The notes under the pieces: generated by a model | Databases searched by the model: none | Seen by the model: the letters and a program-made list of their open reading frames with translations, nothing else | Told to the model about the DNA's origin: nothing | Shown: positions 14,859 through 19,327 of the stretch, piece after piece | Numbering within the stretch: the stretch's first letter is position 1 | Layout of the letters: the number at the start of each line of letters is the position of its first letter | Source: Terracidiphilus sp. | Lineage (GTDB): Bacteria; Acidobacteriota; Terriglobia; Terriglobales; Acidobacteriaceae | Reading direction: 5' to 3' | NCBI GenBank assembly: GCA_035549115.1 | Contig: DASZRQ010000143.1 | Span: 16,641 to 80,640, forward strand | Length of the DNA: 64,000 nucleotides | Program-made: the position numbers and the translations under genes

Positions 14859-15335
14859 TCAGTTTGCCTCCTTTGAGGCAAAGCGCCGCTTCAGCAGCGT
14901 ATCAACGGCAAAAAATCCCGGCCCGAGAATCAGAATCAGCAGCGCGGCAAACCAGTAGGTATAGGGCGTCGCATTGTAGAAGTCTTCCGGGTTCGAAAGA
15001 ATGTGCGAGAAGTTCACGCGATCGTCCGGCACGCTCAGGTAGGCCACCGTCATGTTCACAAACAGTACCAGCGAGGTGAACCGCGATGCGATGCCAAGCA
15101 GAAACAGGATGCCGCCAAAGAGTTCGACGCTTGCGCACATCAGCGCCGTCATATGAGGCATGGGCAGATTCAGAGACGTGAAATATTCGGTCACGCGGCC
15201 CAGATGCGTCAGCTTGCCCCAGCCGTCCTGCGCAAACTGCCAGCCCCAGTAGAGGCGAATGGCAAGCAGCAGCGGGCTCTGCAGCCGTGCCAGCAGCGCG
15301 GAGACGCGCGCATAGAGGCTCACAATCGTGTGCAT
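14859..15335 (-). CDS. DoxX family membrane protein (BufD/HvfX-like)
   Basis: LAIRLYWGWQFAQDGWGKL, SVELFGGILFLLGIASR, LILGPGFFAVD; last gene of the DUF692 operon. Confidence 0.9.
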   Translation of the reverse strand: MHTIVSLYARVSALLARLQSPLLLAIRLYWGWQFAQDGWGKLTHLGRVTEYFTSLNLPMPHMTALMCASVELFGGILFLLGIASRFTSLVLFVNMTVAYLSVPDDRVNFSHILSNPEDFYNATPYTYWFAALLILILGPGFFAVDTLLKRRFASKEAN

Positions 15336-15362: not shown

Positions 15363-16274
15363 TTAATCGGCGATCAGCGGCTCAAGCTCGGGTGCGCAGA
15401 TCCATCCAAGCTCGGCCCAGCGCGCGAACCATGTCTGGATATGCTTCGGCCGCTGCTCCTGAGCCATGCGCGATGTGGCAAAGCCCGCCTCGAGCGCCTC
15501 GGCAAGCGGCAGTCCATCGCCGATCGCCGTCAGCGTCAGGAACTCCTCGCGCAGCAGCCGCAGATAGTAGACCGAGTCCTCCACGCGGTGCGCGGCAAGC
15601 CATGTGGCCCTCCGCCGCAGCTTGGGCAGTTTCGCCGGCGGCGTATCCGGGTCGTCGTCGGGAATGCTCGCCTCCGTCGTCTGCTTCTTCTCGCGCTTGT
15701 GCAGCTTCAGCACAAGATCGTCCGCGGGATACTCGAGCGGAATCAGCCGCAGGTGCGGCTGCAGGGCCAGCCGCGATCCGGCATCGAGCGTCGCAATCTG
15801 CTCCAGCGTCAGCGGCGGGCGTTCCGCGTTATCGAACGCCTCGATAAACGCCCACTCGATGCGTGCCACATCCACGGCCAGCCGGTGACGCCTTCCGGTG
15901 AACTCCGCATGCTGCGCGAGCCACGCCGGGAGGTGCGAGCCGAGATTGCGCAACGTGAACGAGCGGCTGGGGTGCGCCGTGAGGTACGCGACAGACAGCG
16001 CATGGAACACCCGCGCGCCGGCGACCGAACGAAGCGCGGGAAAATCCTCTGCCAGGGCATGCAGCACCCGGAACCAGTACTGCCGGTTATAGAGCTCCAG
16101 CCGCTCGAAAGCAGTGAGCCTGCTGTTAGGCGCAATGAACGACTCCGCCACCGAACGCATTGCCCGTCCGTCGTTGCTGACGGTCTGCATCTCCTCGTCT
16201 TCCGTCAGCGGCTGCATCACCGCGGCGGCCATGGTGCGCTGCAGCTCGGCCAGGGTCATGGCAGGCGCGGTCAT
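15363..16274 (-). CDS. DUF2063 MNIO partner protein (BufC/HvfC-like)
   Basis: RLELYNRQYWFRVLHALAEDFPALR...YLTAHPSRSFTLRNLG...DVARIEWA; ATGA-coupled to the DUF692 gene. Confidence 0.88.
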   Translation of the reverse strand: MTAPAMTLAELQRTMAAAVMQPLTEDEEMQTVSNDGRAMRSVAESFIAPNSRLTAFERLELYNRQYWFRVLHALAEDFPALRSVAGARVFHALSVAYLTAHPSRSFTLRNLGSHLPAWLAQHAEFTGRRHRLAVDVARIEWAFIEAFDNAERPPLTLEQIATLDAGSRLALQPHLRLIPLEYPADDLVLKLHKREKKQTTEASIPDDDPDTPPAKLPKLRRRATWLAAHRVEDSVYYLRLLREEFLTLTAIGDGLPLAEALEAGFATSRMAQEQRPKHIQTWFARWAELGWICAPELEPLIAD

Positions 16275-17131
16275 TGCGCAGCCTCCGCAAGCTGTCCAGC
16301 ATGCTTGTGCAGGTAGCGCTCGGCCTTCTTCGCTTCCGCATGCACCTCGTCGAAGCTAGGAATGTGATCGTCCCACTCCAGCAGCGTCGGCGTAGCTCCG
16401 CAGCGCTCGATGGCGCGCGCATAAAGCTGCCACACCGGGTCGATCACCGGATGATCGTGCGTATCGAGAATGTACTTTTCATACCGCGAGTGCCCGGCGA
16501 TGTGAATCTGCGCCACGCGGTGCGCCGGAATCGCGTTGACGTACTCTATCGGCTCGAACTCGTGATTCACCGACGAGACATAGATGTTGTTCACATCCAG
16601 CAGAATCCCGCAGTCGGCCCGCTCCACCACTTCGTTCAGGAACTCCCACTCCGTCATCTGCGAATCGGTGAACTCCGCATACGAGCTCACGTTCTCCACC
16701 GCCACGGGAATCTCCAGGAAGTCCTGCACCATGCGCACGCGCTCGGCGGTGCGCTCCACGGCCTCCCAGGTATAGGGCAGCGGCAGCAGGTCATGGGTAT
16801 AGGTTCCATCCACGCTGCCCCAGCACAGGTGGTCGCTCAGCCACGGTGTGCCCGTGCGGCGCACAAGCTGCTTCAGCCGGCGCAGGTGCTCGGGGTCCGG
16901 CGCGGTCGCCGAGCCAAAGTACATCGACACCCCATGCTGCACCACGCGGTAGCGTTCGAGAATCTGGTCGAGCACCGCCAGCGGGCGTCCCGCATCGACC
17001 ATGAAATTCTCGGAGATGATCTCGAACCAGTCGACTACCGGCTTGCGCGAAAAGATGTGCTGGTAATGCGGAATGCGCAGACCGATGCCGATGCCGTGAT
17101 CCTGATGCGCGTTGAATCGATTGCCGGGCAT
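16271..17131 (-). CDS. DUF692 multinuclear non-heme iron oxidative enzyme (MNIO; BufB/HvfB-like)
   Basis: GIGLRIPH, WFEIISENF, HGVSMYFGS, WLSDHLCW, DLLPLP, VENVSSY, LLDVNNIYVS, QIHIAGH, DTHD, LLEWD. Confidence 0.96.
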   Translation of the reverse strand: MPGNRFNAHQDHGIGIGLRIPHYQHIFSRKPVVDWFEIISENFMVDAGRPLAVLDQILERYRVVQHGVSMYFGSATAPDPEHLRRLKQLVRRTGTPWLSDHLCWGSVDGTYTHDLLPLPYTWEAVERTAERVRMVQDFLEIPVAVENVSSYAEFTDSQMTEWEFLNEVVERADCGILLDVNNIYVSSVNHEFEPIEYVNAIPAHRVAQIHIAGHSRYEKYILDTHDHPVIDPVWQLYARAIERCGATPTLLEWDDHIPSFDEVHAEAKKAERYLHKHAGQLAEAAQ

Positions 17132-17165: not shown

Positions 17166-17205
17166 AGAGGAGGGCCAGCTTACGCAGCAGCGCTGGCCCT
17201 CCCCT
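17166..17205 (-). promoter_or_regulatory. Intercistronic stem-loop between precursor and MNIO genes
   Basis: GAGGGCCAGC (17170-17179) / GCTGGCCCTC (17192-17201) perfect 10 bp, extendable to 14 bp with one G-U pair in the minus-strand RNA. Confidence 0.7.
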
Positions 17206-17220
17206 GGAACCAGATTGGAG

Positions 17221-17520
17221 TTAGGCGAACTTCGGCATGTGAGAGCCGTCGGTGGCGCAGCCGCCCTTGCCCTTGCAGCTATTCTTGCCCTTGCAGCCGT
17301 TGTCGCTGGACTTGCAGCCGCCCTGGCCCTTGCAATCGTTCTTGCCCTTGCAGGAGTGCTTGGCGGGTTTGTCGGCGCCGGTGTAGCGCAGGCCGGCCTT
17401 GGCCACCTTGGCCGAGGTGCCTTGCGCCGTCGTCGCCGGCGTTGCAGCAGCCGCAACAGTTCCGCCCATCAAACCGGAGAGAGCAGCGGTGAGCAACATC
17501 GCGTTCAGTTGGTTCTTCAT
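17221..17520 (-). CDS. Secreted Cys-rich RiPP precursor, bufferin-like (99 aa)
   Basis: ATG 17520 with GAGGT SD; Sec-type signal MKNQLNAMLLTAALSGLMGGTVAAAA; core CKGKNDCKGQGGCKSSDNGCKGKNSCKGKGGC; directly upstream of DUF692-DUF2063-DoxX. Confidence 0.9.
   Translation of the reverse strand: MKNQLNAMLLTAALSGLMGGTVAAAATPATTAQGTSAKVAKAGLRYTGADKPAKHSCKGKNDCKGQGGCKSSDNGCKGKNSCKGKGGCATDGSHMPKFA
17257..17352 (-). repeat. Two 39-nt coding repeats with 57-nt period in the precursor core
   Basis: 17257-17295 vs 17314-17352 are identical at 34 of 39 positions by hand comparison; both encode CKGKNxCKGxGGC. Confidence 0.95.
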
Positions 17521-17775: not shown

Positions 17776-18243
17776 ATGGACGTCCCGATGGAGGTTCTTA
17801 GTTTGGACTCGAAGAAATGGACCACGGTGAGTTGGGCCAGCATGCTCATCGCGCTTGCACAGAATCTCTGTACGGCCGTTCTGACCATCAGCGGCATCCG
17901 TGTCGCCATCGGCCTTTCCGCGCTGGCGGCTGCCGGCGGCACCTATGCACCGGCGCGCGGCTTTCATCAGGATGCCATCCGCATTCCTATGCTGATCATC
18001 GCCGCTGCGGGCGCGATCATCAATCTCGCCGTGCTCTTCTGGATCTGGCATCTGCGCTCGAGGCCCTCGGCGCAGTGGCGCAAGCGCGAGTTGAGCGCGA
18101 AGGAAAAGCGCTCCGAGCGGCTTCAGGTGGTGCTCGCCATCGTCACGCTGATTCTCGTCGGCCTTGAGACCTGGACGCATCCCATGGTGCATCGCAAGCC
18201 TCCTGTGCCGCTCCATGCGGTCACGCACTCCAGCGCGACTTAG
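17776..18243 (+). CDS. Hypothetical 3-TM membrane protein
   Basis: Three hydrophobic segments, a Cys in the first (QNLCTAV), several His; GC3-rich codon usage; converges on the anti-sigma gene. Confidence 0.75.
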   Translation: MDVPMEVLSLDSKKWTTVSWASMLIALAQNLCTAVLTISGIRVAIGLSALAAAGGTYAPARGFHQDAIRIPMLIIAAAGAIINLAVLFWIWHLRSRPSAQWRKRELSAKEKRSERLQVVLAIVTLILVGLETWTHPMVHRKPPVPLHAVTHSSAT

Positions 18244-18515
18244 CCCGCGCCGTCCTCGCGAGCACTGCCGGGGCCGCTTCCCTCTTCGATCTCTTTGTCG
18301 ATGCGTGCATGCAGCCGCTCGCTGTATCCGGCGGGCAGTTCGAAGACGCGCTCGTCTGCGACCAGGATTACCACGTTGCGCGTCGAGTCCAGCACCGCCG
18401 AGCAGATTTCGCAGGTCTCCAGGTGCTTGTCGATTTCGGCGCGCAGCACCGGGTCCACCTCGCCCTCGATATAGGCCGAGATGTACTCCCACACGTGTTT
18501 GCAGTCGATCCTCAT
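18240..18515 (-). CDS. Zinc-binding anti-sigma factor (zf-HC2/ZAS)
   Basis: CKHVWEYISAYIEGE...HLETCEIC (HxxxCxxC); ATGA-coupled to the upstream ECF sigma gene. Confidence 0.92.
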   Translation of the reverse strand: MRIDCKHVWEYISAYIEGEVDPVLRAEIDKHLETCEICSAVLDSTRNVVILVADERVFELPAGYSERLHARIDKEIEEGSGPGSAREDGAG

Positions 18516-19141
18516 GCGCGCCCTCCGAACCAGCCTTTGCGCTTGGGCGCAAACGCTTTCAGTTGCGGAGCCAGCTCCCGTTGCAGCATCGCGCGAGCAC
18601 GGTGCAGCCGCACCTTGACAGCCCCTTCGCTGATGCCCAGGGCGCCCGCCGTCTCGCGGATATCCAACTCTTCGATGTCTCTGAGAAGAACAATGTTACG
18701 GTAAATCTCCGGCAGCTTCTCGATCGCCTGCCGCAGCAGAGCCGCAAGCTCCTTCTGCTCCAGCGCCGCCGAGGGCACCTCGCGCCAGCTCATCAGGATC
18801 GCGGGCGTGTAGTCTCCGGTCTGCTCGTCGGTCTCCGCGTCCAGAGAGTCTTCGCGCCGCGAGGCCGTCTTGCGCAACCGTCCCAGCCCTTCGTTGCGTG
18901 CGATGGAGAGTACCCAGGTCCGGAACTGCGCATCGCCGCGAAAGAGATGCAGGTTGCGATAGACCTTGATGACCGTTTCCTGCGCCGCATCCTCCGCCTC
19001 AGTTTCGTTGCGCAAAATCGAGTAGAGGAGCAGATAGATCGGCCGCTCGCAGGGAGCAATCAATGGATGAAAGAGATGCTTCTCCCCCGCAAGGATTCTG
19101 CGGATACAGTCGGCTTCGTATTGGGGAGAGGGATTCGTCAT
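18512..19141 (-). CDS. ECF RNA polymerase sigma factor
   Basis: EAEDAAQETVIKVYRNLHLFRGDAQFRTWVLSIARN (region 2); LPEIYRNIVLLRDIEELDIRETAGALGISEGAVKVRLHRAR (region 4). Start re-picked at ATG 19141. Confidence 0.95.
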   Translation of the reverse strand: MTNPSPQYEADCIRRILAGEKHLFHPLIAPCERPIYLLLYSILRNETEAEDAAQETVIKVYRNLHLFRGDAQFRTWVLSIARNEGLGRLRKTASRREDSLDAETDEQTGDYTPAILMSWREVPSAALEQKELAALLRQAIEKLPEIYRNIVLLRDIEELDIRETAGALGISEGAVKVRLHRARAMLQRELAPQLKAFAPKRKGWFGGRA

Positions 19142-19327
19142 CGATGGCGCGCGCTGCCTCGCTGGACTGCGGCAATGCCCTTCGCCACTATAACTTGCCA
19201 TGCGGCGCTTTACGGTAACTTGGCCAGTCTCAGAAAAACCCGCTCCGGCAAAACTTTGCCCGGCGTCATGGATTCCTTATATCGAAAATGTCCAATGGGC
19301 TGTACAATCACATCCACGAGGAAACCC

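Follow-up and report, generated by a model that had tools for sequence, protein, structure and literature searches.

An acidobacterial cysteine-rich precursor as a probable bufferin of the Buf2 kind with an ancient internal repeat

The 64,000 nucleotides of Terracidiphilus DNA analysed here (the window) most probably encode, at positions 17257 to 17352, the Cys-rich core of a Sec-exported precursor of the Buf2 type (BUF_6/12Cys, 'Cys-Lys captophorin'), and the repeat that builds this core appears to be ancient. We place the probability of this reading at about 0.88, a value which covers the identity of the peptide and the age of its repeat and excludes the assignment of modified cysteines.

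The precursor and its repeated core

The following features make up the precursor gene:

17221..17520, minus strand: bufA-like precursor gene, 99 aa (P0001), start ATG at 17520
17443..17520, minus strand: probable Sec signal peptide, about residues 1-26, MKNQLNAMLLTAALSGLMGGTVAAAA, read from the sequence
17314..17352, minus strand: cassette 1, residues 57-69, CKGKNDCKGQGGC, from repeat search, translation and family logo
17296..17313, minus strand: linker, residues 70-75, KSSDNG, in which Lys70 makes Cys69 a Cys-Lys site
17257..17295, minus strand: cassette 2, residues 76-88, CKGKNSCKGKGGC, from repeat search, translation and family logo

The full translation of 17221-17520 on the minus strand reads MKNQLNAMLLTAALSGLMGGTVAAAATPATTAQGTSAKVAKAGLRYTGADKPAKHSCKGKNDCKGQGGCKSSDNGCKGKNSCKGKGGCATDGSHMPKFA, with Cys at positions 57, 63, 69, 76, 82 and 88. 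GAGG stands before the start ATG, and homologues begin at the same MKNQ. The n, h and c regions of the signal peptide and its cleavage site were judged by eye; M1, A12, A13, G16 and G20 of this region are nearly invariant among 81 representatives (45-68% identical to the precursor), and Sec signals are present on bufferin precursors (PMC11626156).

Translation and a repeat search bore out the layout described in the sequence-only reading, namely two 39-nt units joined by KSSDNG, identical at 34 of 39 nt, with starts 57 nt apart, and four copies of CKG in the core. The two cassettes agree in 11 of 13 residues, the direct repeat of 57 nt is 75% identical over its whole length, and TRF gives an 18-nt sub-period that corresponds to the hexad CKGxxx. 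Each cassette consists of a hexad A (CKGxNx), a hexad B (CKGxGG) and a closing Cys, and two cassettes joined by K[ST]xDNG yield the spacing C-x5-C-x5-C-x6-C-x5-C-x5-C. The same reading had sorted the cysteines into two contexts, four CKG and two GGC. This distinction stands on the upstream side of the Cys only: Cys69, one of the two GGC cysteines, has Lys next (GGCKS), so that five of the six Cys are Cys-Lys.

Homologues of the precursor fill more than 5,400 clusters at 90% identity, mostly from soil metagenomes, the named ones being Terracidiphilus or Acidobacteriota, and a 50%-identity library contains 1,343 relatives. From 182 six-Cys domains of the family we derived the logo H-x-C-K-G-x-N-x-C-K-G-x-G-G-C-K-[ST]-x-D-N-G-C-[KA]-G-K-N-S-C-K-G-K-G-G-C-A-T. 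In the 81 representatives all six Cys are invariant, and 14 core positions are (C57, G59, N61, C63, G67, C69, C76, N80, C82, K83, G84, G86, G87 and C88), which makes the two-cassette build a property of the family and the repeat more than a chance resemblance; D73 and G75 of the linker are nearly invariant. The CKG and GGC contexts, whose loss among orthologues would have spoken against the proposal, are conserved across the family in the 182 domains. Lys follows the equivalents of Cys57, Cys63, Cys69, Cys76 and Cys82 in 76-97% of the 182 domains (156 of them for Cys69), while Cys 6 is followed by Ala in 134 and by Lys in 24.

The gene was found in 31 of 301 genomes of the phylum. In this sample the own family carries single-domain genes, whereas most matches outside the own class are two-domain (12-Cys) proteins. 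Distribution within the own genus is patchy, with the precursor in one of three other genomes and absent from two. Beyond their six-Cys domains, many multi-domain relatives bear extra small Cys pairs, CGGK(D/N/G)GCG, or S-C-K-S-K repeats, either upstream of the core (L099, L100, L102, L103, L104, L106) or C-terminal to it (L090, L105), which are possibly further modification or metal sites.

A Pfam search of the precursor returned no match, DUF2282 included, and a PDB sequence search returned chance matches only (E about 0.4). AlphaFold2 on the 81-sequence alignment gave a model without secondary structure at pLDDT 55.3 and pTM 0.17, and this low confidence makes it uninformative on the pairing of the cysteines. 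On a peptide so rich in Gly, Lys and Cys, low pLDDT would be weak evidence for disorder.

A bufferin gene cluster and its neighbours

The precursor gene belongs to a published type of cluster, that of the bufferins or 'Cys-Lys captophorins', whose gene set (Leprevost et al., PMC11626156) is matched by its neighbours:

16271..17131, minus strand: bufB, MNIO (DUF692) bufferin maturase (NF050167, PF05114)
15363..16274, minus strand: bufC, DUF2063 partner protein (PF09836, E = 6.7e-16; weak HvfC match)
14859..15335, minus strand: DoxX-family membrane protein, bufD / HvfX-like (PF07681, E = 2.8e-19)
17166..17205, minus strand: GC-rich 14-bp hairpin in the bufA-bufB spacer (centroid stem)
18512..19201, minus strand: ECF sigma factor, cluster-linked in 55 of 80 related loci
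18240..18515, minus strand: zf-HC2 (ZAS-type) anti-sigma factor, 91 aa, linked in 52 of 80 related loci
17776..18243, plus strand: conserved 155-aa membrane ORF, divergent from bufA, linked in 52-55 of 80 loci

On the minus strand the genes follow each other as bufA-bufB-bufC-doxX, most probably as one operon. The neighbouring DUF692 enzyme had been taken for a bufferin-type MNIO, and the profile searches agree: bufB reaches 356 bits against NF050167 (MNIO_BufB; curated cut-off 310) over profile positions 1-262 of 262, and matches PF05114 at E = 2e-109. The start of bufC overlaps the stop of bufB by 4 nt, and the DoxX protein scores 59.9 bits against NF050144, under the 80-bit cut-off. We compared 80 species-level genome loci, all from Acidobacteriaceae and allies; bufA and bufB are adjacent in every one of them, bufC is present in 77 and doxX in 74. 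In the window's genome, such a precursor and an MNIO of this type each occur once.

The precursor stop and the bufB start are separated by 89 nt, within which the hairpin folds at -35.3 kcal/mol (z = -2.4), without a U-tract. It is possible that this hairpin serves as an attenuator or mRNA stabiliser that would leave more precursor than enzyme transcript. Upstream of bufA, a Pfam search placed the 155-aa membrane ORF in no significant family, the weak match being DUF2231 (E = 0.005). In some loci (L075) the group formed by the sigma factor, the anti-sigma factor and this ORF sits on the other side of the bufferin cluster.

The precursor itself matches the BufA2 profile NF050166 at 36 bits (E = 6e-9), below the 60-bit cut-off, and all 81 representatives match it at E <= 0.001. 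As controls, BufA2 of Caulobacter, taken from Table S1 of the preprint, scores 110.8 bits and two-domain relatives 64.6-76. The same search of the control genomes gave no match in Caulobacter, and a tblastn search of plasmids for annotated BufA2 examples gave none either, the latter probably because of low-complexity masking. With BLASTP, Cys57, Cys63, Cys69, Cys76 and Cys82 align without gaps with Cys12, Cys18, Cys24, Cys31 and Cys37 of the BufA2 core, and Cys88 aligns with Cys50 after a 7-aa gap. Survey tables already list one Buf_6-12Cys gene beside DUF692/DUF2063 in Koribacter, in Terriglobus and in another Acidobacteriaceae genome (PMC12452194), so acidobacterial members of the bufferins are on published record.

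Features of the enzyme fit this identity. MNIOs that act on Cys-Lys substrates have Asp where FonB has Phe250, beside the catalytic Asp (Gadgil et al. 2026, PMC13097082). Residues 252-255 of bufB read EWDD, as in 76 of 80 orthologues, whereas ERDF occupies the aligned position in 3BWW, an enzyme of the Lys-Cys type; with the correspondence to FonB numbering inferred from PMC13097082, EWDD would fit a Cys-Lys-directed enzyme. The Cys-Lys captophorins of that survey share with the present system several Cys-Lys motifs, a cluster of MNIO and PME1 (DUF2063), and DoxX. The survey concerns Pseudomonadota, and site-resolved chemistry exists for no member of the group; the survey catalogues its repeats as 5-mers and does not mention a 13-residue A-B-C cassette. 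Bufferin 1 (BufA1, DUF2282) has the same enzyme set and export route, with two thiooxazoles and one disulfide, but its four Cys lie in a folded beta/alpha domain with no internal repeat, and the precursor of the window lacks a DUF2282 match.

By analogy with characterised relatives, the BufB-BufC complex would oxidise cysteines to 5-thiooxazoles, with a loss of 4 Da each, Sec would export the peptide, and the periplasmic peptide would buffer excess copper; Buf2 gives protection against copper stress (PMC11626156). A core so rich in Cys, Lys and Gly could also belong to an unmodified, metallothionein-like metal binder of the periplasm, the MNIO having another substrate. We consider this very improbable, given the adjacency of precursor gene and bufB at all 80 loci, the single MNIO and single such precursor of the genome, and the homology to BufA2, a modified peptide.

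Age of the repeat and number of cassettes

The sequence-only reading had described the core as an internal duplication and suggested that cassette number could vary between strains. A duplication it is, but an ancient one. Drawing codons from local usage (TGC for 81% of Cys, AAG for 76% of Lys, GGC for 68% of Gly), the two cassette peptides alone predict 30.6±1.7 identical bases of 39, so that the observed 34 slightly exceed expectation (P(>=34) = 0.04). This small excess is what speaks for a recent tandem duplication or gene conversion in the lineage, with a copy number labile between strains. The relatives speak against it. Most of them carry this pair of cassettes, D/S and Q/K differences included: in the 80 loci, cassette 1 is CKGKNDCKGQGGC 55 times and cassette 2 is CKGKNSCKGKGGC 50 times, and within-gene identity of the cassettes averages 31.4/39 (range 26-37). 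Orthologous cassettes resemble each other more closely than paralogous ones do: cassette 2 of the window shares 35.8/39 with cassette 2 of its orthologues and 31.3/39 with their cassette 1. Two cassettes are present in every one of the 120 close homologues, 60 of which have a core identical to that of the window.

Comparison of orthologues, the codon-bias expectation and the fixed number in close homologues led us to reject a recent origin, which is highly unlikely. The 80 loci and the codon-bias expectation gave no sign of recent duplication or concerted evolution. The similarity at the DNA level rather reflects a conserved peptide written with GC-biased codons, and the two-cassette layout is a family-wide arrangement, most probably kept by purifying selection.

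Variation in cassette number was likewise not seen between strains among the 120 close homologues, and 79 of the 80 species-level loci have one six-Cys domain. It occurs deep in the family only: among 150 diverse representatives, 115 have two cassettes, 27 four, three have three, two have five, two have one and one has six. In its main lines this is the published pattern of six Cys in 90% of members and 12 Cys in the rest (PMC12452194), beyond which rare odd numbers of cassettes exist. In some domains two complete 19-residue repeats, KHxCKGxNxCKGxGGCAT, can be read (e.g. P0163), which identifies the three-Cys cassette as the evolutionary module. In contrast to this number, fixed among near relatives, the Cys of MmrA, a peptide of the EGKCG class, vary from five to eight between strains (PMC12538549).

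Candidate modification sites and the place of the acidobacterial clade

Buf2 of Caulobacter vibrioides (Leprevost et al. 2024, PMC11626156) is the closest guide to the chemistry of the peptide. The six Cys of both match one-to-one, with the first five spaced x5, x5, x6, x5, and both have central CK[GT] motifs and MNIO and DUF2063 partners, while the Sec-type signal of Buf2 has a probable counterpart here; proteins of the Buf2 family contain one or two six-Cys domains (PMC12452194), as they do here. The two also differ. Cys I of BufA2 stands in C[YW]G and here in CKG, while its Cys VI lies in a helix 13 residues downstream and here closes cassette 2 (GGC), the 7-aa segment FKAMTKK of BufA2 being absent. 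The acidobacterial clade hence departs from BufA2 exactly at the two Cys presumed to form the Buf2 disulfide. Confident models are reported for BufA1 and BufA2 (PMC11626156), whereas AlphaFold2 gives no fold for the present precursor. Furthermore, doxX is present here and missing from Caulobacter buf2, and the ECF sigma and ZAS anti-sigma genes are linked here whereas sigma genes are reported absent from Buf2 clusters. Canonical BufA2-type precursors also occur in the phylum (L108 and L109, in Acidobacteriota genomes G244 and G293); they carry HC[YW]G and five Cys at cassette spacing, and a helix further downstream holds the sixth.

The mass of Buf2 falls by 18 Da, corresponding to four times -4 Da and one S-S, and by 16 Da once the peptide is reduced; the modifications are reported on the four central Cys and not on the two outermost (PMC11626156). 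The sequence-only reading appears right in kind, with MNIO substrates in a metal-binding peptide, and its count of four modified and two unmodified cysteines equals these mass data, whereas its choice of the four CKG cysteines finds no support in the BufA2 alignment. One difficulty lies in the labels. Both PMC11626156 and the preprint name the unmodified residues 'Cys I (Cys24) and Cys VI (Cys50)', yet the 61-residue core of Table S1 has its Cys at 12, 18, 24, 31, 37 and 50, so that Cys12 is the first and Cys24 the third, and the two labels conflict. The point matters for mapping modification sites onto relatives. We read the unmodified pair as Cys12-Cys50, because the homologous KCYGV Cys of BufA1 is a disulfide partner and because of the wording 'central'.

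Mapped in this way, homology favours a disulfide Cys57-Cys88, and thiooxazoles would form at Cys63, Cys69, Cys76 and Cys82; Cys69, a GGC cysteine, would then be modified and Cys57, a CKG cysteine, would not. As a complete description of the present peptide, this Buf2 pattern is a serious candidate to which we give less than even odds.

In the alternative already proposed, the MNIO would convert Cys57, Cys63, Cys76 and Cys82, giving each cassette a metal site of two thiooxazoles, and Cys69 and Cys88 would be in a disulfide or free as thiols. Such an assignment keeps the symmetry of the tandem cassettes, follows the family-wide K at +1 and G at +2 of Cys 1, 2, 4 and 5 with GG before Cys 3 and 6, and has the 4 + 2 count of Buf2 (-16 Da and one S-S). 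Should the label 'Cys24' be correct, Cys50 would be paired with the third Cys of BufA2, the one aligned with Cys69, and the CKG-only assignment would be the homologous one. The sentence that carries this label, however, leaves Cys I and Cys VI unmodified and the 'central' ones modified, and the disulfide partner of BufA1 points the same way. Cys69 is moreover a Cys-Lys site in most of the family and aligns with DCKT of BufA2, and the Cys that BufB1 converts in SCAG of BufA1 has Ala after it (PMC11626156), so that GGCA might be a substrate too. On balance, we regard a restriction to CKG as unlikely.

A further alternative is processing in the manner of a repeat peptide, in which five cysteines (every Cys-Lys) or all six would be converted and no structural disulfide would form, as in the disordered EGKCG-repeat captophorins. 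Five or six conversions are conceivable because the surroundings of Cys57 (SCKGKN) and Cys76 (GCKGKN) are almost alike, because Cys69 is Cys-Lys like Cys24 of BufA2, and because BufB1 converts SCAG. The aromatic residue after Cys I and the Cys VI helix of BufA2 are both absent here, AlphaFold2 finds no fold, Lys does follow Cys 6 in a minority of domains, and fontiphorin, oxazolin and MmrA have all their repeat Cys converted (PMC13097082, PMC12538549). Against this stand Buf2, the sole measured six-Cys relative, which leaves two Cys unmodified, the prevalence of Ala after Cys 6, and the slight bearing of low pLDDT on disorder in such a peptide. We hold repeat-type processing to be about as likely as the Buf2 pattern, short of probable. 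Patterns other than these three appear improbable.

The EGKCG-repeat peptides oxazolin (HvfA), fontiphorin (FonA) and MmrA/bulbicupramide (PMC13097082, PMC12538549) also consist of short Cys repeats which an MNIO/DUF2063 pair turns into copper-binding 5-thiooxazoles. They share the cassette organisation, with two Cys per cassette against three here and all Cys modified. Their motif is Lys-Cys, whereas the present precursor has Cys-Lys and no EGKCG, and in their MNIO the catalytic Asp is followed by Phe (ERDF of 3BWW), where the present enzyme has EWDD.

Natural variants that have lost Cys are too few for a statistic and remain anecdotal. The second domain of L096 and the first domain of L110 and L111 lack both Cys 3 and Cys 4, which flank the linker, a hint that these two act as a pair; in P0166 and P0252 a single Cys, Cys 4 or Cys 6, is missing.

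These traits can be combined into a tentative picture, somewhat unlikely as a whole, of the Acidobacteriaceae clade as a distinct Buf2 sub-type under sigma control, in which the disulfide cysteines were drawn into the repeat and an unfolded peptide has five or six Cys converted. Cys I would have become CKG and Cys VI the closing GGC. The palindromic spacing 6, 6, 7, 6, 6 round an SDNG turn would let Cys63 with Cys82, and Cys69 with Cys76, build copper sites across strands, and the ZAS-type ECF sigma/anti-sigma pair would control the system. If true, this would place the clade between the folded bufferins and the EGKCG-repeat peptides.

Bufferins and captophorins are among the largest groups of RiPPs and guard bacteria against copper stress. 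What the present analysis adds to them is modest: a three-Cys cassette nested in the published six-Cys domain, which is a descriptive detail of a known system, a sub-type with altered disulfide cysteines, and a conserved linkage to ECF sigma and ZAS anti-sigma genes. Among six-Cys members, a single Caulobacter peptide provides all site-level data, and the acidobacterial clade offers a cleaner repeat with altered contexts at both presumed disulfide cysteines. The modification mass of this clade could therefore tell whether MNIOs choose their sites by the local Cys-Lys motif or by the global fold of the substrate.
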